Virus record (IMG/VR): IMGVR_UViG_3300002294_000003
Location: 1 to 64,000 of that record
DNA from: an uncultured virus (IMG/VR IMGVR_UViG_3300002294_000003)
Taxonomy: Duplodnaviria; Heunggongvirae; Uroviricota; Caudoviricetes
DNA: 64,000 nucleotides
Direction: 5' to 3' (one strand)
The position numbers and the translations under genes are program-made. Below the pieces are notes generated by a model. That model did not search any database. It had not been told where the DNA came from and saw only the letters and a program-made list of their open reading frames with translations. Of this stretch, positions 1-57,802 are shown in pieces. Positions within the stretch are counted from its first letter, which is position 1, and each line of letters opens with the position of its first letter.

Positions 1-29
1 TTGAAAATGTCTGACCCCTACCCTATAAT
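1..29 (+). promoter_or_regulatory. sigmaA-like promoter TTGAAA-N17-TATAAT carrying a spacer motif repeated at 244-270
   Basis: TTGAAA 1-6, TATAAT 24-29; GAAAATGTCTGACCC at 3-17 recurs at 244-258 at the same distance from TATAAT. Confidence 0.65.
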
Positions 30-54
30 AATTACAACCTAAAGAAAGTAGATT

Positions 55-255
55 ATGCCCAAATACTATGTAACAATGCGTGTTGATTTTGCTGGATACC
101 TTGAAGCTGATAGCGAAGACGAAGCAGAGAAACTTGCTTGGACAAGCTGGGGTGACACAATGGACAACGACATAACTTATGACGGTATTTATTCCATTGA
201 TGTTGAAGAAGTAGAGGAAGATGAGGAAGATGATGACGAAGAAGAAAATGTCTGA
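55..255 (+). CDS. small acidic hypothetical protein
   Basis: ORF preceded by GAAAGTAGA; acidic tail. Confidence 0.75.
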   Translation: MPKYYVTMRVDFAGYLEADSEDEAEKLAWTSWGDTMDNDITYDGIYSIDVEEVEEDEEDDDEEENV

Positions 256-277
256 CCCTACTACTATAATTGTTCCT

Positions 278-514
278 ATGATGAAAGTATGCCCTGCCCA
301 TGATGGCAATTTTGACTGTAACCCATTCTGCCGTATCTGTGAGGGTAACCAAGAGTATGAGTCTAATGGTTATCTACCCTGTAATAGATTTGGACATTGT
401 GGAGAATATGTTGAGGAAGATATTTGGCACGAAGAATTAGGTTTCTGTGTTGAGTGTCAGTATATGTATTTCAACCAAGAGTTAGACCCATTCACCCTAG
501 AGAGAGTAGCATAA
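278..514 (+). CDS. Cys-rich putative Zn-binding protein
   Basis: Several CxxC motifs; start moved to ATG 7 nt after TATAAT (265-270). Confidence 0.65.
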   Translation: MMKVCPAHDGNFDCNPFCRICEGNQEYESNGYLPCNRFGHCGEYVEEDIWHEELGFCVECQYMYFNQELDPFTLERVA

Positions 515-666
515 TGAGTAGCACAATTAGTACATGGACTAAGTTTATTTCTAATGCAGGGGACGATGAGTTCAAACAGCAGATGGCTGCTATATTGTCA
601 GATGCCCTTGCTACACTAGATACTATACCTGATGAGGAATTAGAAAGATTGGTTGATTGTGAATAA
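514..666 (+). CDS. hypothetical protein
   Basis: TAATG coupling; GAGAGTAG upstream. Confidence 0.6.
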   Translation: MSSTISTWTKFISNAGDDEFKQQMAAILSDALATLDTIPDEELERLVDCE

Positions 667-797
667 TCCTAAGAAAAAGTTTATTGTTACTTATACAGCT
701 CAGTATGATGTTGAGGCAGATAGTTCGCCTGAAGCTATGGATATTGGACAAGAGATACACGCACATTTGCCAGACGGATTTTGGGAAGTAGCTCATA

Positions 798-1070
798 TTG
801 ATAATCAAGAGACAGAATAGGGTATGGTCTGCTAAAGTGACTAAGACAAATGATTTTACTAAACTAAACCAACTAACAGATTTTATGGTTAGTCACCTCT
901 ATAGCCTGTATGACAGCATAGAGGAAGTAGAAGAGTTTTCAGATGACTGGGACTACATTAGCGGAAGTATTGACACAACACAGGTATACCTGCTAAAATG
1001 TGGGGTAGAGTTTATGGAACACACAGCATACATAGAGTATGTTGATTCACTNAAGTGGGAGAAAGTATAA
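798..1070 (+). CDS. hypothetical protein
   Basis: ORF track; acidic; start uncertain. Confidence 0.55.
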   Translation: MIIKRQNRVWSAKVTKTNDFTKLNQLTDFMVSHLYSLYDSIEEVEEFSDDWDYISGSIDTTQVYLLKCGVEFMEHTAYIEYVDSXKWEKV

Positions 1071-1255
1071 TGGCAATCTTTATTTCAAACATCAATGGCG
1101 ACTGGTGGCAGTTCCATGAGGGACATCCACTGTTTGTTCTTGATACCAATGAAGTTCCTGAGACTGTTCTAGAACAAGTCTATGAGGCTTTGGAGGGGGA
1201 CAAGTTTGAAGAAGTTATCATGGAATACGGCAGAGAGATGGCTCTAGATGTCTAG
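1070..1255 (+). CDS. hypothetical protein
   Basis: TAATG coupling; GAAAGTA at 1061-1067. Confidence 0.65.
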   Translation: MAIFISNINGDWWQFHEGHPLFVLDTNEVPETVLEQVYEALEGDKFEEVIMEYGREMALDV

Positions 1256-1388
1256 GCAAGTTTGGCAGGTATCAATCTATAAAGAAGGCATCATTGAGAT
1301 TGATACTGATGAGACAACTATTGAACAGGCTGTTGAAGACTGGACTTATGATTTAGAAGTTCAGTATGATTTGCTGGAGGAAGAGTAG
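1248..1388 (+). CDS. small acidic hypothetical protein (46 aa, MSRQVWQV...)
   Basis: Manually translated; fills the operon gap. Confidence 0.55.
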   Translation: MSRQVWQVSIYKEGIIEIDTDETTIEQAVEDWTYDLEVQYDLLEEE

Positions 1389-1459
1389 GGGATCCTGCTC
1401 TTTCGAGCTGCGGCAGGTTAACATAATCTATTAAACATAAAAAATTAATTACGAACCTG

Positions 1460-1488
1460 TTGACAAATCCCCCAAATTTTGAGATAAT
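1460..1488 (+). promoter_or_regulatory. sigmaA-like promoter
   Basis: TTGACA-N17-GATAAT. Confidence 0.7.
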
Positions 1489-1514
1489 TGATTCCCAACT
1501 GAAAGTAGAAATTC

Positions 1515-1748
1515 ATGCAGGTATATGCAAATAAAAGACCAAAAGTATCAGACGTATCATGTTGGAAAGGTATCTTCCATCAGAATGGTGTGAGGGTATA
1601 TGAGGCGGATAACTATTATGATTACTATAAAGTTACCGCTGGAAATGACAGGCCTAAGTATTTCTTTGGTGAGACTGCATGGATGCAATGCCAGAGCTAT
1701 GTAGTTGACAAAATAGGCATGGCAGGCTATAATGTTTTTAGTAACTAA
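1515..1748 (+). CDS. hypothetical protein
   Basis: ORF after promoter and TGAAAGTAGAAA leader. Confidence 0.7.
   Translation: MQVYANKRPKVSDVSCWKGIFHQNGVRVYEADNYYDYYKVTAGNDRPKYFFGETAWMQCQSYVVDKIGMAGYNVFSN
1705..1733 (+). promoter_or_regulatory. consensus sigmaA promoter inside the 3' end of the upstream ORF
   Basis: TTGACA-N17-TATAAT. Confidence 0.8.
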
Positions 1749-1768
1749 CCCCAATCGAAAGTAGACAA

Positions 1769-2290
1769 ATGCACGTAATACAATACATTGCAGTAAAAGC
1801 AGATGACGTATCACATGCTCATCGCTCTGTCAAAAGTTATCTTGAAGACCAATTAGGTAGTGGAGATACACACAATACATGGTTTGACTGGTTTGTAACA
1901 GGTGGCGGACGTTGGGCTACAGGTGACAACCAATATAATGATGACTGGACTGGAGATATTAGACACCAGTCTGACGATGAGTTTGAGGAATACCTAGATA
2001 CCGCTCACAAATACAGGCAGCAGGAATTGTCTACGTATGAAGAAGAAGCACGTAAAATAAATCTAACAGAGATACTAGACAGCCTGCAGGACTTTGAGTT
2101 TGACCATTTCAAAGCAGGCATGGACTTATACCCTATCAAGAAACTATACGACCTATGCATGGGGGTATGGGACTATCAGTCTTATTTCTTTGACATAGAA
2201 CATGAGGCTACCTCCAGAAAATACATGCGTGAAAGTATTGACAAAGGTGATGATAACTGGTATCTTGTTCCTGTGGATTTCCACTTTTAG
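1769..2290 (+). CDS. phage hypothetical protein (WFDWFVTGGGRW; C-terminal VPVDFHF)
   Basis: 173-aa ORF; GAAAGTAGA leader. Confidence 0.8.
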   Translation: MHVIQYIAVKADDVSHAHRSVKSYLEDQLGSGDTHNTWFDWFVTGGGRWATGDNQYNDDWTGDIRHQSDDEFEEYLDTAHKYRQQELSTYEEEARKINLTEILDSLQDFEFDHFKAGMDLYPIKKLYDLCMGVWDYQSYFFDIEHEATSRKYMRESIDKGDDNWYLVPVDFHF

Positions 2291-2303
2291 AAAGTAGGTA
2301 AGT

Positions 2304-2387
2304 GTGGAGTTTCTAACTATACTGGCATTCATATTGATTGCTGGTGGTTTTCTAAACGGTATATTTGATGTAAGGAATCACGACTAA
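2304..2387 (+). CDS. 27-aa single-TM micropeptide
   Basis: GTG after GAAAGTAG; MEFLTILAFILIAGGFLNGIFDVRNHD; TAATG-coupled to the next gene. Confidence 0.5.
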   Translation: MEFLTILAFILIAGGFLNGIFDVRNHD

Positions 2388-2779
2388 TGATGATTGAGAA
2401 AGTAGAAGCAGTAGAGTATCAAGGCTGGGGCAACTGGGCTGATAAGTTCAAGCCTACCAAAAACCAGTTTAGCAAAGACCCCAATGAGCATATGTTTGAA
2501 ACCTTTGGGGAAGAGTATGACTATGTCAAGACTGTTGATGAAAAGTTCGTATGGACTTGGGTGCAAGGTGACCTATGCGATATTATCGTAGCAGGCAGAA
2601 GCTATGTAAATAGATTAGGTTACTACATTACTGAGCTACCGTGGGACAATGAGTGGGACAGTTGTCTGCTTAGTGTTCAGGTAGAATGTGAATGCTATGA
2701 CGAAGACGGGTGGGAGTATGGAGACCCAGATTGCAAGCCTTGTGAGGGGAGCGGGTATGTCACAAACTATGTATCGTAA
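2387..2779 (+). CDS. hypothetical protein with C-terminal Cys motifs (CxxCxGxG)
   Basis: ORF track. Confidence 0.75.
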   Translation: MMIEKVEAVEYQGWGNWADKFKPTKNQFSKDPNEHMFETFGEEYDYVKTVDEKFVWTWVQGDLCDIIVAGRSYVNRLGYYITELPWDNEWDSCLLSVQVECECYDEDGWEYGDPDCKPCEGSGYVTNYVS

Positions 2780-3113
2780 CAAGAACCGTAACAAGACTCT
2801 TATTGACTATGACCTTAACATCTACATGCCTGAAGAGCTGGATGAGGGAGGGAATTCATATTGGGACCCCGCCAGCTGGAAGATACATGTATACATCGTT
2901 AACAGGTATGGTCACGAGGAATTCGATGAGCCTGTCAAGTTAACAGCTGAAGAAATCATGGCCCTAGGTTTTAATAGGGATGAGTACTTCAGCAATGAGC
3001 AGGACGTGTGGTATGGCCTAGACGGATTCAGGATGGAATACTGGCACAAGATGTCTGACAGACTCAAGATGTATTTCGATCAATTGCCAAAGTACGCTGA
3101 AGATGTAATCTAA
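2769..3113 (+). CDS. hypothetical protein
   Basis: ORF track; start moved to minimise overlap. Confidence 0.7.
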   Translation: MYRNKNRNKTLIDYDLNIYMPEELDEGGNSYWDPASWKIHVYIVNRYGHEEFDEPVKLTAEEIMALGFNRDEYFSNEQDVWYGLDGFRMEYWHKMSDRLKMYFDQLPKYAEDVI

Positions 3114-3125
3114 CTAAATAAAGAT

Positions 3126-3227
3126 TGATGCGTCTGAGCCTAGCTCCGCATCATGGATACAGCTGGTTAGGGGTAGCCAGGGTATCCAAGGGGTGTCAAG
3201 GACTTTCTACTTTCACCTTGACACCCC
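3126..3227 (+). ncRNA. candidate three-hairpin RNA with a loop antisense to the GAAAGTAG leader motif
   Basis: Stems TGATGCG/CGCATCA, TGGATAC..CTGGTTA/TAGCCAG..GTATCCA and a perfect 12-bp GGGGTGTCAAGG/CCTTGACACCCC; a G-U pair favours the + strand. Confidence 0.55.
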
Positions 3228-3246
3228 ACCCAATTTCTGATACAAT
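3218..3246 (+). promoter_or_regulatory. sigmaA-like promoter
   Basis: TTGACA-N17-TACAAT. Confidence 0.7.
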
Positions 3247-3261
3247 ACGCACAGGAGAATA

Positions 3262-3474
3262 ATGACAAGACACAGGCAAAGCACAGCAGAAAAAACAGCA
3301 ATCAAAATCGGTAGCCTAGTAAATGACCTAACTTTAGATTTAGACCAAGTTGGTATGTATTTGGGTAGAGATAACAACATAACCTATAACAGACTTATGG
3401 TGATTTTGGAAGCTGCTAAGTGGGAGAAAGAAGAACAATGGGAGATGATACAAGATGAAAACTACCTTTTCTAA
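3262..3474 (+). CDS. hypothetical protein
   Basis: AGGAG RBS; ORF track. Confidence 0.75.
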   Translation: MTRHRQSTAEKTAIKIGSLVNDLTLDLDQVGMYLGRDNNITYNRLMVILEAAKWEKEEQWEMIQDENYLF

Positions 3475-3742
3475 TAAGTGTGCCATTCTAGCAGATGTGT
3501 GGATGGACTATAGAGATGACGAGCAATTTGAAGACTATGTTGAGTTCAATGACTTAGGTCTGCCACTTGCTTATTGTGCATACACAGAGCTTATTGCTAT
3601 AGATGAGGACAGCCCAGCAGGAGAAATTATTGACGAGAGTTTTTCAATCTTGCTTACAGGCATTGGTCTGAATGATACAGGGTTTGAAGACCTAGACCAG
3701 ATTCTAACTTTGGCTGTAACAAAAAACAATAACGAGAAGTAA
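3455..3742 (+). CDS. hypothetical acidic protein
   Basis: ORF track. Confidence 0.75.
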   Translation: MKTTFSNKCAILADVWMDYRDDEQFEDYVEFNDLGLPLAYCAYTELIAIDEDSPAGEIIDESFSILLTGIGLNDTGFEDLDQILTLAVTKNNNEK

Positions 3743-3746
3743 TAGT

Positions 3747-3772
3747 CAGGGGTCACTTTAATGTGGCCCCTG
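3747..3772 (+). terminator. hairpin after the early operon
   Basis: CAGGGGTCAC/GTGGCCCCTG stem; weak U tract. Confidence 0.45.
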
Positions 3773-3999
3773 TCTGGCCGCAGTGATCTATCCCTAGTGC
3801 CCAAACCTTTACGAACCAGACATTAAGAACCCCAGAATATTTTTCGCAGATCCAAACCTCTATATCCAAATTTAAATAAATAGACATTACGAACGCAACG
3901 AAAAAAATCCCAGAAAGTTTTGTCATTATATCGTTATCAAACCGTTATATTTGGTTTGGGGGTACTTAGGCAAACCTTAATACCTGATATACTATATAC

Positions 4000-4215
4000 A
4001 TGAGTCCTAGAGGTTTCTTCAGTAAAGAATCTATACATCCTCATTTTACTACAGAGGAGTATAAGAATAGTGATCAGTATCAAAAAGATATTGATTCTTA
4101 TATAGCTATGGAGAATAGGATCAAGGCTTGGTTTGGATACCCCCGCTTTTTGTGGTACAAGGGTTTGGCAGCTATTGGAATACTGGCGAAGCCAGAAGAT
4201 AACAAAGATAAATAG
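4000..4215 (+). CDS. hypothetical protein, leaderless
   Basis: TATACT-N6-ATG. Confidence 0.55.
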   Translation: MSPRGFFSKESIHPHFTTEEYKNSDQYQKDIDSYIAMENRIKAWFGYPRFLWYKGLAAIGILAKPEDNKDK

Positions 4216-4383
4216 ACATTACGATGGGGCATAAAAATTCCCAGGTATTTATAAAAATAACCAAANCCTTTTAATAAATTNCCCCTATATAAGATACAAT
4301 AACAAACCAATTATCCTTGATTTCGGATAGTTTTATTTGAAGGTTTGGGCATATAACGGTTTGATAAATATATGGTTTGGGGC

Positions 4384-4412
4384 TTGACATTTGAATGGTT
4401 TGGGGATATAAT
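4384..4412 (+). promoter_or_regulatory. consensus promoter with no downstream ORF
   Basis: TTGACA-N17-TATAAT. Confidence 0.7.
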
Positions 4413-4607
4413 GGTTTGAGAAAGATTACGAGCTTAAGGTTTAATACGCTCAGTTACCCATACCACTTTCCTCCACTTCTCTCCACTATAAAAACCATTA
4501 CGATCAGTAATATATTTTTCCCAGAAATCATGTCAAAACCATAGCCTAATTAGCCTTAAAATCGATTTTGAGGGGGGCATCAAAACCTTCGTTTGACTGG
4601 ATATGGG

Positions 4608-4712
4608 CTATTTTCTTTTGCGTCTATCGTCTATATCCAATAGCACTAAAATGGTAGCTCCCAAAAGAAACATGCTTGATAAAACAATAGCTAGTATTTG
4701 AAGATTACTCAT
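4608..4712 (-). CDS. 34-aa single-TM micropeptide
   Basis: MSNLQILAIVLSSMFLLGATILVLLDIDDRRKRK; manual translation. Confidence 0.5.
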   Translation of the reverse strand: MSNLQILAIVLSSMFLLGATILVLLDIDDRRKRK

Positions 4713-4881
4713 CTTTTGGAGTGTCTGGGATATATGGGTTGCTTGGCTGCAAAGAGTCTTTGTTCTCTTCTGTAACAGCAGTCATAACTGTCTCTTCTGA
4801 ACAGTAATTGCACTTCGGCATCTTATCTCCATCACCTGGTAGATTGTTGCCACATGTCATACATCTATAGATAGTTTCCAT
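4705..4881 (-). CDS. small Zn-ribbon protein
   Basis: AGGAG RBS; CxxC...CxxC; manual translation, 58 aa. Confidence 0.6.
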   Translation of the reverse strand: METIYRCMTCGNNLPGDGDKMPKCNYCSEETVMTAVTEENKDSLQPSNPYIPDTPKDE

Positions 4882-4960
4882 AATATCTCCTATTGATCTA
4901 TTATATCAGTATTATGTTTATATAGGGGATTGGGATGCTCTGGTTTGATACCCCTGGATT

Positions 4961-5533
4961 TTAGAGTAGGTTATCCCTCACCTTTTTGGCCTTATCAAAA
5001 GCTGGATCATTTTCTAATAGGTTTAAATGTGAATAGTTTATCTGGCCAGATTGATCTGGAAATCTAAAGAATATCATGGTTACAAACTCACCCTCTTTGA
5101 AGACCTTGTGGGGCCTCCAGTGTGGATACTGATTAGGATTAAAAATAAGAGCATCATTGTCATTCATTTCAAAAACTTCTGTGTCTAATCCCAGTGGCCA
5201 AAAAGTATTAGACTTATATTGATAATCTATGATTACACTATTATTGTCCCCATCAAAATGTGGTGCTAGATTTGGATGTCCGTACTTAGCTTCATAATGA
5301 GCAAACATAAGGTTTATGTTAGGAAGTTCTTTTTCTAGCAATTTTTCTACTTTTTGTTTTATGTTTTCTTTTATGCGATGTGGCATTTCAATTGTATAAA
5401 TAACTCTTCCAAGCCTTGCATCTTCTTTCTTTTCAGACCTTAAAGACCATAAATTTTCATCCGTCAATATACGATCTATTTCTTCAAGCTCTTCTGGGGG
5501 TAAGAAGTTTGGGACTTTATATACATTTTCCAT
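4961..5533 (-). CDS. 2OG-Fe(II) oxygenase-like protein
   Basis: HxD (PHFDGD) plus distal H (PHWR); leaderless TATAAT-N6-ATG. Confidence 0.7.
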   Translation of the reverse strand: MENVYKVPNFLPPEELEEIDRILTDENLWSLRSEKKEDARLGRVIYTIEMPHRIKENIKQKVEKLLEKELPNINLMFAHYEAKYGHPNLAPHFDGDNNSVIIDYQYKSNTFWPLGLDTEVFEMNDNDALIFNPNQYPHWRPHKVFKEGEFVTMIFFRFPDQSGQINYSHLNLLENDPAFDKAKKVRDNLL

Positions 5534-5653
5534 ATAAGCATTATAGCAGCTATAGGCTTACTAGAGGATATTGCTACGGAGTAGCATGGGTAACTCTATT
5601 TTACCGCCGAACTTTAAGCTATAATATCTTAATGACTATCGAACTTATTAGTG

Positions 5654-5857
5654 TTATCGGCTTTCTTTGCCTGGTGGCAATTTGGTTTGCGATGAAGCCT
5701 TAGCATATTTGCTCAAAAGTTTTTCTGTTTCTTTGTCAAAGGCCTTTTGCTCTTTGGCGTGAAACTTGGCCTTTCTTTCTAAGGATCCTTCTGCAAAAGT
5801 CTGCTGGCGTGTCTTTGTTTTATTTCCTGGAGTTTTGTGAATGGCTTTTCTTTGCAT
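5654..5857 (-). CDS. basic hypothetical protein
   Basis: ORF track; coupled to the upstream gene. Confidence 0.55.
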   Translation of the reverse strand: MQRKAIHKTPGNKTKTRQQTFAEGSLERKAKFHAKEQKAFDKETEKLLSKYAKASSQTKLPPGKESR

Positions 5858-6195
5858 TAAAAGTCATCGTCCTCTGGATAATATTCTTTAATGTCTGCTG
5901 GCTTTAGTAGTTCCATTACTTCTCTGTAGAATACCGCTCTTTGTCCCTTGCCCATATTAAGCGATGATTCAAACATCATGTTAAGAATGAACTGAACACG
6001 CTCTCTTTCTTTTTCAACGCCCTGCTCAAAGCCAGATTTAAAGCCCGCCTCTTCTCCTGCTTCATATGCTTCGTCTTGTGGCTCTGCCTCTATGCCATTA
6101 TCAAAACCTTCATCATATCCTGCGTCATGTCCAGCAGAATATCCTGCATCCCAAAGCTCTCGCTCTTCTAGAGTTAAATCTTTATAGTCTTTCAT
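5857..6195 (-). CDS. hypothetical protein with GxxxG (FliH/Yae1-like) repeats
   Basis: GYSAGHDAGYDEG, GFKSGFEQG. Confidence 0.65.
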   Translation of the reverse strand: MKDYKDLTLEERELWDAGYSAGHDAGYDEGFDNGIEAEPQDEAYEAGEEAGFKSGFEQGVEKERERVQFILNMMFESSLNMGKGQRAVFYREVMELLKPADIKEYYPEDDDF

Positions 6196-6542
6196 TCTGT
6201 CATCATCCAATCTATAATTTCTGGATTATCTCTCATAAACATAATGAGTGCATTTTCGTATACCCCAATGAAAAAGTGCTCCCACTTTTCATAATCTGCT
6301 TCTTTTTCTGGCAAACCATTTTCAAATATCATACGCATAGCATGAAGTATTTCATGCATTACAACAACCTTTTGTTTCCCAACAGATAGCTCATTTGCTA
6401 TTACAATAAGGTTACCCTGATCCAGGGTATATCCGTGAGAGCCATCGCTCAACATTCCATCTTCATGGGAATAGCGATATTCAATATTGTAAGTCTGTGG
6501 TCCAATCCTAACCTTGGTAGGTCTTGGGTCTCTAGTTGGCAT
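6192..6542 (-). CDS. small HExxH metallopeptidase-like protein
   Basis: HEILH motif. Confidence 0.65.
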   Translation of the reverse strand: MPTRDPRPTKVRIGPQTYNIEYRYSHEDGMLSDGSHGYTLDQGNLIVIANELSVGKQKVVVMHEILHAMRMIFENGLPEKEADYEKWEHFFIGVYENALIMFMRDNPEIIDWMMTE

Positions 6543-6612
6543 GGGAATCCTTAGCTCAATGTAGGTCTATTATACAGGATTGGCATCAGAAAGTCAATGG
6601 TATAATATTACG

Positions 6613-6804
6613 ATGACAGATAGAGAACCCCACGTATTTCCAGAACTAGAACAGGCCATAGACCTTGTGGTTCATACCAAGTCCCCCGAAAAGTGGATAC
6701 TTGTTGATAGAGAAACTGGAAAAATATTTCAGGGTTCTGCAAATGGGCATTGGGATAGGCTTATGCCTAGAGAGTATCTGCCACAATTTCACGAACTTTC
6801 TTAA
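6613..6804 (+). CDS. hypothetical protein, leaderless
   Basis: TATAAT-N6-ATG. Confidence 0.65.
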   Translation: MTDREPHVFPELEQAIDLVVHTKSPEKWILVDRETGKIFQGSANGHWDRLMPREYLPQFHELS

Positions 6805-6988
6805 ACAAAGTATCCTGATAAATTGGAGTCTTGGTGGCATGAGACTGCTGCTCTAGCTCATCAATTGCCGTCAAAATTCTTTCTCTTTCCTGAAACCTAG
6901 CATCTTGAATAAAGTTATCAATTGCTTTTACGTCAGATTTAGATGCAGTATTGTCTAATACTAGCATTCCGTATTCATACTTGATCAT
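6767..6988 (-). CDS. hypothetical protein
   Basis: GGGAG RBS before MIKYE; QERERI motif shared with 10545. Confidence 0.6.
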   Translation of the reverse strand: MIKYEYGMLVLDNTASKSDVKAIDNFIQDARFQERERILTAIDELEQQSHATKTPIYQDTLFKKVREIVADTL

Positions 6989-7167
6989 GCTATCTCCCGT
7001 AATATGATGTAAAAAATGGGAAAAATATTGCACCTATAATTAGCATAGCTGGGACTAGCCCAACTAGTGCAATTACCTGTATAACATTCCAGTCAATTTG
7101 TTTCTTATAGTACTTAATGATATTCTTTAAAGTTAAGTAAGCGTTGGTCATACTTAAGTTTATCATT

Positions 7168-7434
7168 TTATCCCTCAGATGTCAATGGCGAATTATATGT
7201 CTCTATTTCAATATCTAAGTCAGGATAGTCTTCTGTAATTCTTTTTATAGCTTGCCCTGTATCGTGTCCCACTTCTTCATGTCTGCTTAGATGGGCAATT
7301 GCTTCTCTTGGAGTTTTAAACTCAGGCCACCAGTCCTTATCCCAATCTGCAAACAGGCATCCACAGCACTCAATGTACCCACCCACATGCTCAAATATGT
7401 AAACATCTGATGTGCTAAACCGTTCGAAACTCAT
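7168..7434 (-). CDS. hypothetical protein
   Basis: ORF track. Confidence 0.65.
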   Translation of the reverse strand: MSFERFSTSDVYIFEHVGGYIECCGCLFADWDKDWWPEFKTPREAIAHLSRHEEVGHDTGQAIKRITEDYPDLDIEIETYNSPLTSEG

Positions 7435-7624
7435 CCCAATCGCCCCTATATGTATAATTTAATCCCAGCTCTGGGGTATAGACGCAGATCTCGTCAGGCT
7501 CTAGATATTTGACCTGATTTTCTGAGGTAATGTGAAACATATAAGTGCCCTTGGGTACGGCAGTCTCAGCATCCATATTCTTCATAAGATTAATAAATGT
7601 ATCACGCTTGGCTATTACGAACAT
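7415..7624 (-). CDS. hypothetical protein, leaderless
   Basis: TAAACT-N6-ATG. Confidence 0.6.
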   Translation of the reverse strand: MFVIAKRDTFINLMKNMDAETAVPKGTYMFHITSENQVKYLEPDEICVYTPELGLNYTYRGDWDEFRTV

Positions 7625-7702
7625 ATATATAGTTTACTGCAAAAAAAGCGGCTTGTCAATAAACACAAATAAAGGAATGTATAATAGTTTTTGGAGGTCA
7701 TA

Positions 7703-8497
7703 ATGACACTAAAATCTATTTATGATATTGAATTAAATTCGGCAGATGGAGAGCCTGGTTTTTTACAGCAATTTAAGGGCAAGGCTGCTATTGTTGTAAA
7801 TACTACCGTTGGATGTGGCAATGCCAATCAAATGGAAGTTTTGCAATGGCTGCAAGAAAAGTATGGCGGAGATCAATTTCAAATTATTGCTATTCCAACT
7901 AACGATTACTGTGGACCAGGAGTTACTTATGGAAAGTGGTCTGAGGGAATTACCTGTGGTTTAGATTCTCAAAATTATGGCCAAGATGTTTATGGAACTA
8001 CATTTAAGTTTTCAGAAATGGTATCATCAATTCCTCAGCCTGGTGTAAGCGTACAACTTGGAGTAGAGCCAGGACACAATGGATTGGGACAGCCAAATGG
8101 CGAACCCCATGAACTTTATTTAACAATTAGAGAACACCAGCTTGCTGCAAAAGAAGTATTGAAAGCAAACGGCCTTGACCCCTACAATATGTTTAAAGAT
8201 AAATACTTTTCATATTGGCTCAATATGGGCTTTTATAACGGAGATCAAATGGGCGGAAACTTTGAAAAATATTTAATTGATAAAGATGGATATGTTCACA
8301 AGCATTTTCAATGTACCACACTAAATATTGATGTTGAAAGAACAATTAAAGAAGTTGGTGTTGATGGAAACATGGAAATTGGCGTTGGTCCTGGACGATC
8401 CAAAAAGATATTTGAAGAAGAATGGACAGTGATTTGTCAAGAAATTGAGCAGCTAATTGCTGGTCAAAAATCCATTATTAATCCCACATCTAACTAA
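7703..8497 (+). CDS. glutathione peroxidase-family protein (Cys type) with insertions
   Basis: SIYDI..KGKAAIVVNTTVGCG, IIAIPTNDY, NFEKYLIDKDG motifs; GGAGG RBS. Confidence 0.85.
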   Translation: MTLKSIYDIELNSADGEPGFLQQFKGKAAIVVNTTVGCGNANQMEVLQWLQEKYGGDQFQIIAIPTNDYCGPGVTYGKWSEGITCGLDSQNYGQDVYGTTFKFSEMVSSIPQPGVSVQLGVEPGHNGLGQPNGEPHELYLTIREHQLAAKEVLKANGLDPYNMFKDKYFSYWLNMGFYNGDQMGGNFEKYLIDKDGYVHKHFQCTTLNIDVERTIKEVGVDGNMEIGVGPGRSKKIFEEEWTVICQEIEQLIAGQKSIINPTSN

Positions 8498-8527
8498 TAT
8501 TTCATTTTGACAATGATATAATTAGGT

Positions 8528-8755
8528 ATGGATAAGATTAAGACTGATGTTCAGAACGCCAAATGGCATACCCTTTGGCAAAAACGCATGGCCGAAAATA
8601 AGCCACGTGAAGGCGATTACAACTTTGTGGTTTGGAAGAATGGCTCTGAAATAATTATAGAGCCATGGAATAAATCAGTTCCCCCGTCAGTATATACTAA
8701 GGGACAATGGGTAGTCTTGGCATCAGATTATAGAGAGGACAATGATGGCAGGTAA
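8528..8755 (+). CDS. hypothetical protein, leaderless
   Basis: TATAAT-N5-ATG. Confidence 0.6.
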   Translation: MDKIKTDVQNAKWHTLWQKRMAENKPREGDYNFVVWKNGSEIIIEPWNKSVPPSVYTKGQWVVLASDYREDNDGR

Positions 8756-8887
8756 AAAAACAAAAGGAGAAAGAAACTCCAACAGGCAAAATGGCAAGGC
8801 AAATAAAAAAAGGCCACTAGTATTTGATCCTGAAAAAAGAAGGCTTGTAAGAGCAAAATAGCATTTTTTGAGGTATATAATAGAAGT

Positions 8888-9160
8888 ATGACACAAAAAG
8901 AAATTGTTGAGTTTTCTACTTCTGGATCTAAAACCTCTGAAATAATGCAACCAATAGTTCAAGAACTACTTCACAATAACCCAGATGTTACATATACTAG
9001 AATTAATTATGATGAAGAGCCAGACCTAGTAAAGGCCATGATTGCTTCTCAGCCACCAACAATTAGTCCATTTTTTGTGAGCTTTTACGATGGCAAGATG
9101 TTTGCCAGTGCTGCTGGATTAATTTCTGCAGATGAGCTATCTAGACTATTAAAAATCTAG
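8888..9160 (+). CDS. thioredoxin-fold protein lacking CxxC
   Basis: Trx-like pattern with SKTS at the CxxC position; leaderless. Confidence 0.6.
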   Translation: MTQKEIVEFSTSGSKTSEIMQPIVQELLHNNPDVTYTRINYDEEPDLVKAMIASQPPTISPFFVSFYDGKMFASAAGLISADELSRLLKI

Positions 9161-9334
9161 GTCTGGAAAAACTGTCTGTGCTTCATTGCAATTTAAGCAA
9201 TAGTGCGTATAGTCTTTAATAACAGTACCGCCAAGAACAACTTCATCTCGTCTAGATGCCTCAATCATTTCAGGTGTAGGATACCCATAAACTATTGGCA
9301 CCATAAAAAATTGATTACAAATTGAGCAGACCAT
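9149..9334 (-). CDS. small Zn-finger protein (PIVYGYP family)
   Basis: CxxC..PIVYGYP..LGG..CxxC. Confidence 0.7.
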   Translation of the reverse strand: MVCSICNQFFMVPIVYGYPTPEMIEASRRDEVVLGGTVIKDYTHYCLNCNEAQTVFPDLDF

Positions 9335-9482
9335 TAATTAATTTTATCATATAAATACAATATAATTGGCAAATGATACCTATTTTTTGGAAATGTCCAG
9401 AATGTGGTATGTCTATTAGGGCAGAGCAGACTGATCAAATCCCTACCATCATTACTACACATAACTGTGATACAATATAAGA

Positions 9483-9764
9483 ATGCTAACACATTCTCTA
9501 ATTACCCTTTCAAGCAGCAACGTTACAAGGGTGTCTCCAGCTGGTGTTCACTCTGGATGTGACGTAACAGTACAAAATGTTAATGATACTGGTTACATCT
9601 ACCTTGGAAATTCTGCAGTATCCAGCACAAACTATGGCTTTAGAATTTTACCAAACCACTCCATTTCTTTTGAGCTTCCTGGAAAGGACGCTCTTTATGC
9701 AATCTCTTCTGTCAATTCTATGAAGGCAGCTGTTATGATTACCAATCTTGAGAGTGGTAGTTAA
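9483..9764 (+). CDS. small beta-rich protein, possibly virion-associated
   Basis: Ser/Thr/Gly-rich; leaderless TACAAT-N6-ATG. Confidence 0.6.
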   Translation: MLTHSLITLSSSNVTRVSPAGVHSGCDVTVQNVNDTGYIYLGNSAVSSTNYGFRILPNHSISFELPGKDALYAISSVNSMKAAVMITNLESGS

Positions 9765-10210
9765 TGGCTAGGTTTACACATCCTGCTTTTGGTGATGTGG
9801 GCGGGCTAACTACTGAAATTAAAACATATTCTCCAGTTTGGTCTGGAACTGGGTTGGCCTTTACTGGAACACCAGCAAGTGGCTCATACATTAAAATGGG
9901 TAACTTTGTAACCGTACAGATGGATGTTATTTTTACTAACGTTACAAACTTTGGAACTGGGCAATATTCTTTAACATTGCCAGTTGCATCTCAGTACCAC
10001 ACAGATGTTTATGGTGGTTCCATACATAAGATAACGAATCAGGGAATAGACCACTATAGCATTAAAGGTCACTTAGTTCCTGGTAGCACAACTTTCACCC
10101 TTTGGATAATTGGTAGCAGTGCTGCAGATGCCCCGTTTGATCACAACACTCCAGTAATTATTGATACTGATGACAAGTTCCATATGTCATTTACATATAT
10201 TTGTGAATAA
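9764..10210 (+). CDS. tail-fibre C-terminal-like beta protein
   Basis: YSPVWSG..GSYIKMGNFVTV..GTGQYSLTLP pattern. Confidence 0.55.
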   Translation: MARFTHPAFGDVGGLTTEIKTYSPVWSGTGLAFTGTPASGSYIKMGNFVTVQMDVIFTNVTNFGTGQYSLTLPVASQYHTDVYGGSIHKITNQGIDHYSIKGHLVPGSTTFTLWIIGSSAADAPFDHNTPVIIDTDDKFHMSFTYICE

Positions 10211-10291
10211 GTTATCAAACTGTAATAAATTACTTGATTTTTACCCCCATACAGGAGTATAATATATCATCAACTTAATAAGGAAGTGTTT

Positions 10292-10513
10292 ATGACTACT
10301 GTTTATACAAAGCCATCGTGCGTTCAGTGCGATATGACTAAAAGATATATGGATAAGAATGGTATTTCTTACAATACCGTGGATATTACTGAGGACCCAG
10401 ATGCATTAGACTTAATTGTTGGCATGGGATTTTCATCAGTACCAGTAGTCATTTCAGAAAAAGGTACTTGGGCAGGCTTTCAGCCAGATAAGATTAATCT
10501 TTTAGCTGCTTGA
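10292..10513 (+). CDS. nrdH: glutaredoxin-like NrdH redoxin
   Basis: VYTKPSCVQC, VPVV, WAGFQPD. Confidence 0.92.
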   Translation: MTTVYTKPSCVQCDMTKRYMDKNGISYNTVDITEDPDALDLIVGMGFSSVPVVISEKGTWAGFQPDKINLLAA

Positions 10514-10544
10514 TTTTTTGACTTAGTTAGTGTAAAATTAATAT

Positions 10545-10772
10545 ATGAGCCTACCAGACATTGACTATGAATTGAGAAATGTGGGACAATTTGAGTATGG
10601 TGTTGATCTAGCAAGTCCCAGAACGCCACAAGATATGCAATTTGTTGCAGATGCATTTGCTGCAGGGCAACAAAAAGAACGTGAAAGAATTGAGCAGGCA
10701 CTAACTGCTAAATCTTCTAGTGGTCATTTAAGTATTGCAGTATTTGAATTGCAGAATATTATTAATGAATAA
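10545..10772 (+). CDS. hypothetical protein, leaderless
   Basis: TAAAAT-N6-ATG. Confidence 0.65.
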   Translation: MSLPDIDYELRNVGQFEYGVDLASPRTPQDMQFVADAFAAGQQKERERIEQALTAKSSSGHLSIAVFELQNIINE

Positions 10773-10929
10773 TATTTGGGAAGAACTCAAGTCTATTAAA
10801 AAAGATCTTGATGCTATTGAAATGCAACTTGGCATGAATAATGAAGCAATAGAATCTATTGAAATGGAGCTAAGATTTTTACAAGCAGAGCTGGATTACG
10901 AAGCCAGGGGCAATAGCTCAGCAGGTTAG
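10765..10929 (+). CDS. small coiled-coil protein; 3' end overlaps a tRNA
   Basis: ORF track; heptad pattern. Confidence 0.5.
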   Translation: MNNIWEELKSIKKDLDAIEMQLGMNNEAIESIEMELRFLQAELDYEARGNSSAG

Positions 10930-10980
10930 AGCAAACGACTCATAATCGTTCGGTCCTGGGTTCAAGTCCCAGTTGCCCCA
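10907..10980 (+). tRNA. tRNA with CAT anticodon (Ile2 or elongator Met)
   Basis: GGGGCAA/TTGCCCC acceptor; AACGA-CTCATAA-TCGTT; TTCAAG T-loop. Confidence 0.9.
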
Positions 10981-10981
10981 C

Positions 10982-11057
10982 GCCCCCATAGCCCAATGGT
11001 AGAGGCAGCAGACTTAAAATCTGTTCAGTGTCAGTTCGAATCTGACTGAGGGCACCA
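10982..11057 (+). tRNA. trnL: tRNA-Leu(TAA), short variable arm, encoded CCA
   Basis: GCAGA-CTTAAAA-TCTGT; TTCGAA; one C-A mismatch in the acceptor stem. Confidence 0.9.
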
Positions 11058-11077
11058 AACATGGTATAATTAACAAT

Positions 11078-11674
11078 ATGAGTATAAATGCATGGGGTAG
11101 GATTAGCCCAAGACGTAGAGAAAAGATGCAGCAATTGTCTGGAGAACAGGCCACGGCTGCAACTAAAGAAAAGATTGAAGATCAGAAGCGTAAGCGTTAT
11201 GAGCTTCAGGAATCTAAGCGTGCTCCCAAAATTCAGGTAGACCAAAAGATAATTCTTTGGACATGGCTAATTGGTATTGCTGCTGCTTTTATATCATCTG
11301 CAATCGTATCATTTAATGGTATTACTTCTGTTGCAGAATTTGTTGGACTATCTCAGTCATGGATGGCTGGACTATTCTTTTTCTTTATTGAGCTTATGTA
11401 TCTTTTATTCTTGGTTGCATATCTTGTACTTGCGTCTAGAATAGATGAAGATGGTAAGTCAGAAAAAACTGGCGGTGCATTGATTGGAATGATAGCCTTT
11501 GGTGGTATTGCAGTTCTTGCTAATGCCTTCCACACTTTTGATTTTTGGGAGTGGGCATGGACTGAGCCACGTATGTGGGCAGGTATTATACTAAGCATTG
11601 CAGCACCAATTGCAATTATTAGTGCATCCAAGATGGCATCCAGAGTTGTATTTGCTAAAGCAATTAAGCTTTAG
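11078..11674 (+). CDS. 4-TM membrane protein (DUF2637-like)
   Basis: Four hydrophobic segments after a charged N-terminus. Confidence 0.65.
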   Translation: MSINAWGRISPRRREKMQQLSGEQATAATKEKIEDQKRKRYELQESKRAPKIQVDQKIILWTWLIGIAAAFISSAIVSFNGITSVAEFVGLSQSWMAGLFFFFIELMYLLFLVAYLVLASRIDEDGKSEKTGGALIGMIAFGGIAVLANAFHTFDFWEWAWTEPRMWAGIILSIAAPIAIISASKMASRVVFAKAIKL

Positions 11675-11698
11675 TCCATGCTGTATAATAGTATTACT

Positions 11699-12367
11699 AT
11701 GACAAAATTAGCTATTGCTGTTCCCACTCGTGGTAGGCCACACAATTTATTGAGACTTGCGAATGCCCTAAAAGAAACTTGTACTGTCGAATATCAGCTT
11801 TTTGCTCGTATTGATAATGATGACACATCTCCATACATAGAGCTAGAAAATACAACTTATCTTGTTGGGCCTAGAATATTTTATGCTAAATCAGTTAATG
11901 AAATTGCACAAAAGGCATTAGAGGATGGCTTTACACATATTGCAATCCTTGGCGATGATGTTTTGCCTGAAACAAAAGGCTGGGATAAGATAATGATTGA
12001 TTCTTTATCAGATCTTGGAGTTGCATACGGAAGTGATGGCTTAGAGCATCTGCATGGACAAGATCTTCCAACACATGTAGTTGTTCCAATTGAAATGTAT
12101 AAACGTTTGGGCTGGATTGCATTACCAACACTAAGACATTTATTTTGCGACAATGTTTGGAGAGAGCTTGGCAAGATGACCAACTTTATTTATCATCCAC
12201 AGGTGAAGCTATCCCATTTGCATCGCTGGAATCAGAAAGCCCCAGATGATGAAATTTATCAGCAAGCAAATGATAAGCGTAAGCGTGAACAAGATAAAAA
12301 AGCATTTGAGACTTGGAAGAATGGAAAAGGCCTACAAATTGCCAAAAAGGCTTTATCGCAGCAATGA
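11699..12367 (+). CDS. glycosyltransferase family 2
   Basis: IAVPTRGR, IDNDD, LGDD (DxD-like), FCDN. Confidence 0.85.
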   Translation: MTKLAIAVPTRGRPHNLLRLANALKETCTVEYQLFARIDNDDTSPYIELENTTYLVGPRIFYAKSVNEIAQKALEDGFTHIAILGDDVLPETKGWDKIMIDSLSDLGVAYGSDGLEHLHGQDLPTHVVVPIEMYKRLGWIALPTLRHLFCDNVWRELGKMTNFIYHPQVKLSHLHRWNQKAPDDEIYQQANDKRKREQDKKAFETWKNGKGLQIAKKALSQQ

Positions 12368-16469: not shown

Positions 16470-16862
16470 CTACCTGATCTCAATCTGCTTTGGCTTTAGT
16501 TCCTCTGGCATATTGCGTTTTAGATCAATGTACAGAATACCGTCAAATGCTGAAGCATCCGTTATCTCAAAGTATTCTGGCAGGGAGAATGAGCGAATAA
16601 ATTTACGAGTAGCAATTCCCTTGTAAATATATTCATCATCCTTTCCTAGCTTTTCACCCTTGATCGTTAGAACTCCTCTTTCTACTGAAAGCTCTAGCTC
16701 TCCACGACTAAATCCAGCAACAGCGAACTCCATTATAAAGTGATCATTGTCTACTTTCTTTACGTTATAGGGTGGATAGTTTGTTTTTTGCATTGGTGCA
16801 CCAAATAACTTATCGAATTCCCGACTAAGTTGTGCAAATGGATCTACATAAGATACCATCAT
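16470..16862 (-). CDS. small heat shock protein Hsp20
   Basis: NYPPYNV, FAVAGF, YKGIATRKFIRSF, DGIL. Confidence 0.93.
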   Translation of the reverse strand: MMVSYVDPFAQLSREFDKLFGAPMQKTNYPPYNVKKVDNDHFIMEFAVAGFSRGELELSVERGVLTIKGEKLGKDDEYIYKGIATRKFIRSFSLPEYFEITDASAFDGILYIDLKRNMPEELKPKQIEIR

Positions 16863-57160: not shown

Positions 57161-57802
57161 TTAAACCTCTTCCAGCGTTACCGAAATATTCCAAAAGTCA
57201 TGTGTTGTGCCACCACGCTTAACAACACTATAGGAAAAGTCAGATATAAACATTTCTATTAACTGATTGTATTTTCCTAGATGAGCGTAGGCTGCATCAT
57301 CATCTCCAAAAACAGAATACTTATCATAAGCAAGAAATACCCAGAATGATCCTTTATGATTTTCATACCAATTTACTAAGTCTACTCCGCCAGCTCCGCC
57401 ATCAGTAGTATACTCAAAATCTCTATCATTATAATATTCTGATTTTCCAGTTGCCTGAACAAAGTCTGGCCTTAACTTATAAGATCTAGATGGAAGCATA
57501 TCCCAGGATGTAGAAATAGTTAGCTTATCTGCAATGTGATACGATCTCATACGACCATTAACCATTCTTCTACGATTTTCGATTCTAGTTGGGCTAAACT
57601 CAATTGGCCTTCTATTATCATCAGATAAAATTAAAAACTCATCCAATAATGATTCATCTGTAACAGCTCCTGGATCTGATCCAATTTCTAATCCATTGGG
57701 TATATAAAAGCCATTTGAAAGGGTTCCAGAGTTGTTGGACCAAAGCATAGCCTGTGGTCGCTGATATTTTTTACGACCTGCCATATATGCTGATGTAGCC
57801 AT
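57161..57802 (-). CDS. distal tail-like protein
   Basis: Directly after the TMP; ends WNISVTLEEV. Confidence 0.65.
   Translation of the reverse strand: MATSAYMAGRKKYQRPQAMLWSNNSGTLSNGFYIPNGLEIGSDPGAVTDESLLDEFLILSDDNRRPIEFSPTRIENRRRMVNGRMRSYHIADKLTISTSWDMLPSRSYKLRPDFVQATGKSEYYNDRDFEYTTDGGAGGVDLVNWYENHKGSFWVFLAYDKYSVFGDDDAAYAHLGKYNQLIEMFISDFSYSVVKRGGTTHDFWNISVTLEEV

Follow-up and report, generated by a model that had tools for sequence, protein, structure and literature searches.

A conserved three-hairpin RNA of uncultured phages with a loop complementary to a variant ribosome-binding motif of presumed early genes

The stretch of DNA analyzed here, called the window, comprises the first 64 kb of a linear 76,436-b IMG/VR record of an uncultured member of the Caudoviricetes (IMGVR_UViG_3300002294_000003), for which CheckV gives a completeness of 67%. 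The window has a G+C content of ∼38% and six tRNA genes. Positions 1–3742 hold small open reading frames (ORFs) on the + strand with several sigma-70-type promoter-like sites upstream of them, and judging from this layout the block presumably consists of early genes. From ∼14 kb on, the genes lie on the − strand, and their products include a DnaE-type polymerase, a UvsX-like recombinase, a DnaB-like helicase, a ribonucleotide reductase, a terminase-like protein, and tail proteins. The DnaE protein is 57% identical to those of the Streptomyces phages BillNye, Circinus, and Wakanda (Stanwilliamsviridae), and the DnaE/UvsX neighborhood is common to all of them, which makes the actinobacterial host proposed in an initial annotation of this DNA plausible. 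A megablast search of window positions 1–8000 against phages gave no match. Within the + strand block, an intergenic element at 3126–3227 folds into three consecutive hairpins, and the open loop of the third is complementary to a variant Shine-Dalgarno (SD) motif that precedes several genes of the same block (Table 1). The conservation of this element and the possible function of its loop are the subject of this report.

Upstream of the element on the same strand is a stop codon (3111–3113), and with its terminal hairpin at the 3' side the element occupies the position of a 3'-untranslated region (3'-UTR). The three hairpins named in the initial annotation were recovered by folding: the minimum free energy of the + strand at 3126–3227 is −55 kcal/mol, compared with −33.2 ± 3.4 in 200 shuffles, none of which was as good (z −6.35), and the − strand folds less strongly (−49.2, z −4.10). 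Hairpin 3 is the only hairpin in the 76-kb record that combines a stem of at least 8 pairs with such a loop (CTTTC, CCTAC, or CCTCC), and a search with the covariance model described below (one copy per locus) found no second copy elsewhere in the window. When positions 1–12000 of the window were compared with Rfam 15, including the c4 and 6C families, by cmscan at E-values up to 10, nothing was found over 3115–3260, the output consisting of two tRNAs and weak chance matches only. A promoter scan found no convincing promoter of the element's own.

Relatives were collected by a search with the upstream ORF, and a DNA pattern for hairpins 2 and 3 led to 18 viral contig loci (three of them chance matches and three duplicates). 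Eleven distinct full-length element sequences, aligned end to end, served to build a covariance model, and the small downstream ORF, aligned and used as a query, yielded 33 further viral loci and 34 metagenome loci. A palindrome scan of viral contigs returned at least 119 loci, four among the matches listed being the element; it was uninformative on new loop types. In the 11-sequence alignment, no variation is seen in the hairpin-2 apex (GTTAGGGGTAGC), in the lower hairpin-3 stem, or in the loop core CTACTTTC, which is thus present in 11/11 distinct viral-contig elements. Compensatory changes were found in 7 of the 31 predicted pairs of these 11 sequences. The 24 distinct model hits were aligned by fitting to the model, a procedure that favors structure; in this alignment, both partners vary in 25 of 31 pairs, and 96.3% of cells are paired. 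In controls on the same alignment, sliding the partners by 1–3 columns left ∼50% paired, and 0/500 shuffles reached the observed value. Seven of 10 pairs change on both sides in hairpin 1 (for example TGATGCG/CGCATCA to TGATACG/CGTATCA), and in hairpin 3 this is true of 13/14 pairs, with 97.6% of cells paired. The outer stem of hairpin 2 co-varies as well, and its apical stem changes from GUUA/UAGC to GUAA/UUGC in one group of relatives (clade II, below) with the GGGG kept.

The same alignments also indicate which strand is the RNA. Pairs 239/282 (CG 12, UG 9) and 240/281 (GU 12, AU 8) fit the + strand only, and tandem U.G/G.U pairs occur in hairpin 3 of relatives, as in L152, where GUGUUGAG stands opposite CUCUUGAC. 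Because these frequent wobble pairs would turn into A.C mismatches on the other strand, the RNA must correspond to the + strand, as had been proposed from a pair in hairpin 2, and a − strand RNA was ruled out. In both viral and metagenome relatives, the stems co-vary around a conserved loop core, in line with what the initial annotation predicted. From these comparisons, we regard it as nearly certain that the element is a conserved + strand structured RNA of ∼100 nt. The metagenome loci carry CTACTTTC in 23 of 34 cases; the others are two with CCTACTTTT, three of clade II, five without the element, and one that is cut off. Elements of this family occur widely among uncultured relatives of Streptomyces phages. 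The covariance model found it in neither of two Streptomyces phage records, BillNye and Sham (0/2), in a search that had no positive control. One viral locus (L166) has a second, diverged three-hairpin copy at 3211–3361 (44 bits), ∼0.9 kb downstream of the first and with a different hairpin-3 loop.

The hairpin-3 loop had been described as antisense to a leader in the early block, and positions 3204–3215 are indeed the exact reverse complement of 1500–1511 (TGAAAGTAGAAA), which ends 3 nt before ATG 1515. Its core motif, GAAAGTAG, occurs nine times in the 64-kb window, well above the expected 2.52 ± 1.66, and 0/100 shuffles reach nine, so the suspected excess over background is real in the window. 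Six copies are on the + strand; five of the six fall at 44–2405, and four of these end 3–6 nt before a start (ATG 55, ATG 1515, ATG 1769, and GTG 2304). The fifth, inside the 2387 gene, and the variants before 514 and 1070 are likewise present as annotated. The ORF that begins at GTG 2304 is hydrophobic and 27 codons long and terminates in TAATG at the start of the 2387 gene, and in relatives the leader orthologous to 2290–2297 directly precedes a gene of 130–146 aa. A perfect leader-like sequence, AAAGAAAGTAGACAATG, is also found on the − strand at 16745–16758, inside ORF 16470–16862, where it opens four codons only.

Table 1. Coordinates of the element, the leader motif copies, and adjoining features in the window.
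Feature	Position	Strand	Remarks
Hairpin 1	3126–3153	+	outer stem 3126–3132/3147–3153, inner GAGC/GCTC stem; from fold
Hairpin 2	3154–3188	+	variable outer stem, conserved apical GUUA-GGGG-UAGC; GGGG tetraloop 3170–3173
Hairpin 3	3190–3201/3216–3227	+	perfect 12-bp G+C-rich stem, open 14-nt loop
Hairpin-3 loop	3202–3215	+	ACTTTCTACTTTCA as DNA, ACUUUCUACUUUCA as RNA
Loop core CUACUUUC	3207–3214	+	antisense to leader motif GAAAGUAG
Leader GAAAGTAG	44–51	+	3 nt before ATG 55; 3' of promoter 1–29; net −10.0 kcal/mol
Leader variant GAGAGTAG	502–509	+	before ATG 514; change keeps G.U pair with loop
Leader variant GAAAGTAT	1061–1068	+	before ATG 1070
Leader TGAAAGTAGAAA	1500–1511	+	12-nt perfect complement; 3' of promoter 1460–1488; net −12.4 kcal/mol
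Leader motif	1757–1764	+	4 nt before ATG 1769; 3' of consensus promoter 1705–1733; net −10.6 kcal/mol
Leader motif	2290–2297	+	6 nt before GTG 2304; 3' of promoter 2238–2266
Motif copy	2398–2405	+	11 nt inside gene starting at 2387
Promoter-like site TTGACA-N17-TACAAT	3218–3246	+	11/12 matches, TG extension; −35 in hairpin-3 3' arm
Small conserved ORF, 70 aa	3262–3474	+	AGGAG site 3253–3257; always follows element

The diverged elements form three groups: clade I, a sister clade (clade II), and remote relatives with a short or unrelated hairpin-3 loop (L153, L165, L168, L169, L170, L174, and L181–L183). Clade I loops read CCUACUUUC, with UCUACUUUC in the window alone, ACUACUUUC in L156, and CCUACUUUU in L178, L197, and L198. 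When ten clade-I records (612,581 b) were scanned over their whole length, GAAAGTAG was present 63 times and a backwards control pattern 33 times. The 63 are made up of 44 sense-strand copies within 12 kb upstream of the element, 10 loops themselves, and nine copies elsewhere. Among the sense copies in the fetched parts of clade-I regions, to which this count is confined, 34/35 have the start of an ORF of at least 25 codons no more than 12 nt downstream, in agreement with the prediction that the motif would be conserved before starts of presumed early genes. Its distance to the start is 0–8 nt (mostly 3–6) and that to the −10 box is 14–36 nt; because the first is steady and the second variable, the motif appears to have a role in translation and not in promoter function. 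The leaders are ∼15–25 nt long, with the site near the inferred 5' end, and recur in two forms, (CU)ACCCUAA-N-GAAAGUAGA-N3-6-AUG and GAAAGUAGGAYUUCAUG. Among the putative targets, the gene of a 333-aa DUF932 protein is shared most widely. In one 93% complete record (G013), 12/13 copies of GAAAGTAG are concentrated within 60.4–71.9 kb of 101.5 kb. Three copies on the opposite strand of this record, at 71556–71911 just past the early block, may mark a divergent early unit. A run of CCCC at −35 to −1 was noted in 28/74 unique motif-bearing leaders (window plus L003, L025–L027, L152–L159, and L218–L220), compared with 1/56 late genes and 8.7% of random sense 35-mers; this C-run, often in the form aCCCCaATG adjoining the start, may be a second contact site.

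Clade II has a different loop, CCUUUCUUA, in the form UUUCCUUUCUUA in L154 and L155 and UUACCUUUCUUA in L158 and L159, with L161 and L167 related. Its early leaders are (U)AAGAAAGG or AAGAAAGA, and sense copies of these stand before starts in 10/10 cases in one genome (G006) and 11/11 in another (G007), as opposed to 0/2 antisense copies in each, with GAAAGTAG found once in 95,901 b of four clade II records. Orthologous genes switch leader type along with the loop. For example, a 184-aa gene carries ..ccccaataGAAAGTAGataaccATG in L152 and ..ccccaacAAGAAAGGtgttccaATG in L154. The 1769 gene of the window and its orthologue in L152 share GAAAGTAG, in whose place clade II has AAGAAAGA, and a 138–146-aa gene has GAAAGTAGG in clade I and TAAGAAAGA in clade II. 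The ratio of type I to type II motifs is 35:11 in clade I and 0:4 in clade II (Fisher p 0.006, ignoring relatedness), or 35:11 and 1:21 when longer clade II regions are used (Fisher p 2e-8, again ignoring relatedness), and because sequences within clades are related, both p-values overstate independence. Metagenome loci follow the same trend, all 20 type-I motifs being found in the 23 loop-I loci while the other 11 loci have none, and no sense copy of GAAAGTAG was found in nine loci with a short or different hairpin-3 loop.

Both loop types resemble the 3' tail of 16S rRNA. With CCUCCUUUC assumed as the tail of the host, the loop I core differs from it by one change (CCUACUUUC/UCUACUUUC vs CCUCCUUUC), and loop II matches it over CCUUUCU. 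The tail GAUCACCUCCUUUCU has been mapped in Listeria and Streptococcus, the accessible part of that report giving no actinobacterial tail (PMC6288834). Against this widely conserved tail, GAAAGUAGG pairs at 8/9 positions with a central U.C mismatch, while the loop pairs perfectly with the leader. Nearest-neighbor duplex energies of type-I leaders, which do not include closed-loop strain, range from −10.8 to −15.3 kcal/mol with loop I, from −6.0 to −10.3 with the assumed 16S tail, and from −4.6 to −6.7 with loop II. Type-II leaders show the opposite preference, with ∼−10 for loop II and −5 to −6 for loop I. Opening costs 0.01 kcal/mol for the loop and 1.3–2.0 for the leaders, which leaves a net −9.5 to −12.4, and the accessible loop is complementary to the ribosome-binding site (RBS) of its putative targets over 8–12 perfect pairs. 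Two AGGAG leaders tested with loop I gave −3.3 to −7.1 kcal/mol; these weak energies, together with the sites of the late genes, agree with the original suggestion that AGGAG-led and leaderless genes are not matched by the loop. The middle and late genes of the record have AAGGAG or GGAGG sites, or start 5–8 nt past a TGnTATAAT box. Because AGGAG and GGAGG sites are in use in the same phage, the anti-SD of the host must be ordinary, and a variant host anti-SD was ruled out as the source of the motif. Across 4000–64000 on both strands, many middle and late starts lie 5–8 nt 3' of a TGnTATAAT box, and these genes are probably leaderless.

The explanation we favor, with a rough probability of 0.55, is that a 3'-UTR RNA mimicking the docking tail of the ribosome pairs with a private class of early RBSs and represses them. 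The element lies at the 3' end of the rightward, presumably early block, and transcripts from the many promoters of this block would run into it; because all early promoters read towards the element, it would be made at least as often as any single leader. Its three hairpins would be expected to make the resulting 3' fragment long-lived. Hairpin 3 presents an open loop of 13–16 nt that would imitate the 16S 3' tail, with an A where the rRNA is assumed to have C, and the early class would use a private RBS, GAAAGUAG(R), equivalent to the tail-complementary GAAAGGAG with the matching U. At private leaders, the loop would out-pair the ribosome through its 8–12 perfect pairs and compete with 30S binding. 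Translation of the private-leader genes would then fall as the stable 3' fragment accumulates, amounting to class-wide negative feedback or shut-off, and AGGAG-led and leaderless genes would be spared, including the AGGAG-led ORF behind the hairpin-3 promoter. When repression is taken together with a positive role of the same pairing (discussed below), the comparisons make a functional loop/leader interaction probable.

Several observations weigh against this explanation. Several of them concern the coupling of loop and leader: the two switch together between clades I and II, as the initial annotation would predict, but finer covariation was not found within clade I. The switch amounts to approximately one clade-level event, though one in which numerous scattered leaders of each genome took part. 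In clade I, leaders fit the flanks of the loop in their own genome no better than those of other loops (own mean 9.26 nt, with 1336/5000 permutations as high), and in many clade-I genomes the loop is CCUAC but the leaders are of the GAAAGUAGA form, with a mismatch at position 9. In addition, 11 type-II leaders that loop I would not match occur in clade-I genomes. The sub-clade of L012, L021, and L023 keeps the loop, yet exact leaders number 0–1 in the available sequence, which in one contig stops 3.5 kb upstream of the element. In this sub-clade, the leader position of the 1769 orthologue reads GAAAGCAG, and the gene behind the single leader of G002 is the DUF932 orthologue. Conversely, one genome with only a TTTGGG loop in hairpin 3 (G008, locus L153) has seven type-II leaders before starts. 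Since these leaders lack a matching loop, they must work as ribosome sites alone, the loop being a regulatory addition. Other reservations are of a physical kind. A run of 9–12 pairs inside a closed 14-nt loop is under steric constraint, a factor missing from the duplex energies, and both the host and its 16S tail are assumptions. No intrinsic terminator-like site was found in 1–4400, and hairpin 3 is not followed by a canonical U-tract. Finally, related sequence occurs at a small share in six sequencing runs, four of which (X1, X2, X3, and X6) were examined at the level of contigs. X1–X3 are probably DNA runs, and X6, an RNA library in which DNA is not excludable, gave short contigs of 90–95% likeness to parts of 52–2911 and 4013–4199 and none over the element.

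The strongest rival explanation grants hairpin 3 a role as a terminator or insulator only, one that shields the next promoter, and regards the early leaders as plain SD variants pairing with the 16S tail. The likeness of the loop to that tail would then be a decoy for an rRNA 3'-end factor, or have no function towards the leaders. Such a role would sit well with four remote relatives (L165, L168, L169, and L174) that have the same stem and promoter with a tetraloop only, with the persistence of leaders without the loop in G008, and with the lack of fine-scale covariation in clade I. It leaves unexplained why the loop core does not vary when the upper stem does, why a base in the loop compensates exactly the odd U of 44 leaders, and why the second clade has a different loop with matching leaders. 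The hairpin is also an unusual terminator, being followed by ACCCAAUUUCUGA instead of a U-tract and having a 14-nt loop where 3–8 nt is usual. On balance, we consider this explanation unlikely in its exclusive form. In addition to its proposed role in repression, hairpin 3 probably does end or insulate upstream transcripts, and because the stem and promoter are found in remote relatives with a tetraloop only, the module must be older than the long loop, which, from its distribution, seems to be a function gained by a terminator or insulator hairpin.

A second rival accepts the pairing but reverses its sign: the loop would shield the short 5' leaders from 5'-end-dependent decay or circularize the mRNA, or, in a variant, the loop and the SD-like GGGG of hairpin 2 would bridge ribosomes to early mRNAs. 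Complementarity and co-change serve this possibility as well as they serve repression, leaders of only ∼15–25 nt with the site near the inferred 5' end suit it, and so does the invariance of the GGGG tetraloop. There is also a precedent in Bacillus subtilis, where, according to the accessible part of the report, a 5'/3'-UTR interaction affects the stability of hbs mRNA (PMC5737220). We nonetheless hold a positive role to be rather improbable, since the duplex would cover the RBS itself, an arrangement that in known cases blocks initiation. A more elaborate and still more doubtful version makes the element a two-headed adaptor, in which the hairpin-3 loop would hold the private GAAAGUAG site and the SD-like GGGG of hairpin 2 would contact ribosomal CCUCC or the leader C-run beside the start codon. 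Such an orthogonal SD:anti-SD dialect could clamp the initiation region on both sides or bridge ribosomes to early mRNAs. Neither of the other two loops appears to have leader targets of its own: whole-record duplex scans found none for the loops of hairpin 1 or hairpin 2, and the 12-nt complement of the hairpin-2 loop is not enriched in the window (38 matches with at most 3 mismatches, 29.3 expected).

The remaining rivals dispense with RNA pairing altogether. If the inverted repeat were instead a DNA operator, a regulator such as the small downstream protein would bind over the −35 element, and the motif copies would be further binding sites. The 12-bp repeat does overlap the −35, a small helical protein is always encoded adjacent to it, and four of the five + strand motif copies at 44–2405 are downstream of promoter-like sites (1–29, 1460–1488, 1705–1733, and 2238–2266). 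Against an operator, the arms are kept complementary by U.G/G.U pairs that would be mismatches in a DNA palindrome, the spacing of the motif is fixed to start codons and not to promoters, and the leader copies all have one orientation, with only the loop copy inverted; this explanation therefore seems highly improbable. Chance complementarity between the loop and a common purine-rich leader can be practically dismissed: both sequences are of low complexity (GA-rich and CU-rich), but 0/100 shuffles reach the motif count, dozens of diverged loci keep the loop unchanged, and clade II has the same loop/leader relation with different letters.

Repression by a tail-mimicking 3'-UTR RNA would have partial parallels in known systems. 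The c4 antisense RNA of phages P1 and P7 (Rfam RF01695) was reportedly described by Citron and Schuster in 1990. Like c4, the element would be a phage RNA derived from the transcript of its own targets, with loops that pair with RBS regions and matched loop/target changes among phages; c4 is upstream of its targets, acts on one operon, and serves lysogenic immunity, whereas the element is at the 3' end, faces many dispersed leaders, and has no Rfam match. The 3'-UTR-derived small RNAs (sRNAs) CpxQ, SroC, and DapZ share the terminator of the parent mRNA, usually have their seed in a single-stranded 5' part, and involve Hfq and RNase E. The element shares with them the operon-end position and a last hairpin that doubles as the 3' end structure, and differs in that its candidate seed is the loop of the terminal hairpin. 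The putative host group, Actinobacteria, is not known to have Hfq. In phage T4, the nuclease RegB and the repressor RegA shut off early mRNAs post-transcriptionally via their ribosome-binding sites, a similar class-wide early control at ribosome sites in which the effectors are proteins, not a candidate RNA. The icaR mRNA is said to have in its 3'-UTR a pyrimidine-rich anti-SD sequence complementary to the RBS at its own 5' end, which would block translation. The likeness is in the anti-SD-like 3'-UTR sequence complementary to an RBS of the same transcript; icaR involves one gene and one site in a bacterial mRNA, whereas the three-hairpin module faces 5–8 or more leaders belonging to an entire gene class, and leaders and mimic carry a private, co-changing SD:anti-SD variant. 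The anti-SD motif of the icaR 3'-UTR in Staphylococcus aureus is documented in the accessible part of the relevant paper (PMC3868564). The available portion of another describes the 6C sRNA of Actinobacteria, in which many mRNAs are bound through exposed hairpin loops acting as the seed, independently of a chaperone (PMC6486639). As far as that portion goes, 6C makes loop-mediated pairing without a chaperone plausible in an actinobacterial host, and differs in having C-rich loops, where the element has U/C-rich tail mimics, and in being a host gene with its own transcription unit.

A literature search, in which the sources were partly accessible, found no description of such a loop/leader element. 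The novelty would lie in a mimic of the 16S tail whose compensating change fits it to a private SD variant of many genes. If the pairing is real, the phage marks its early gene class by a private RBS dialect that is governed by one small tail-mimic RNA, and this RNA leaves the later genes, with ordinary sites or none, untouched. The result would be a compact, RNA-only timing device and a natural example of an orthogonal SD:anti-SD pair. Should the adaptor version be true, nature would have produced an equivalent of the engineered orthogonal ribosome-mRNA pairs, with a small RNA in place of rRNA. The two clades with different loop/leader pairs are a ready-made specificity-swap system.

The region around the element has several further features. 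As the initial annotation stated, the −35 of the next promoter is inside the 3' arm of hairpin 3; this promoter (3218–3246) is conserved in relatives and drives the AGGAG-led ORF 3262–3474. A Pfam search with the 70-aa product of this ORF gave no match, and its predicted structure consists of three helices at low confidence (pLDDT 62). Early promoters recur in two types, one with a TTGAcAATGTCnGA −35 region and TATAAT and the other of the form cTTGACA-N17-TGAGATAAT, seen at 1–29, 245–269, 1460–1488, and 3218–3246 of the window and also in L025, L026, L010, and L015. The sequence TTACGAAC is found upstream of promoter-like sites at 1453–1460, 3808–3815, and 3886–3893, as well as before the class-2 promoters of relatives (aaacctttacgaac..TTGAC). 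In a distant relative, the homologous region is present at both ends of one 124.5-kb contig (L169 and L170, at 2015–7188 and 118038–123211), a duplication that indicates a long terminal repeat holding the presumed early gene block. On the − strand of the window record (G000), a 2995-codon ORF at 57802–66789, which extends past the window, has weak PHROG matches of unknown function, and a Pfam search with it gave no match. Downstream of the element, a second strong hairpin without a U-tract (CAGGGGTCAC..GTGGCCCCTG, 3746–3775) is found 3' of ORF 3455–3742, and from it an AT-rich non-coding stretch extends to ∼3999.

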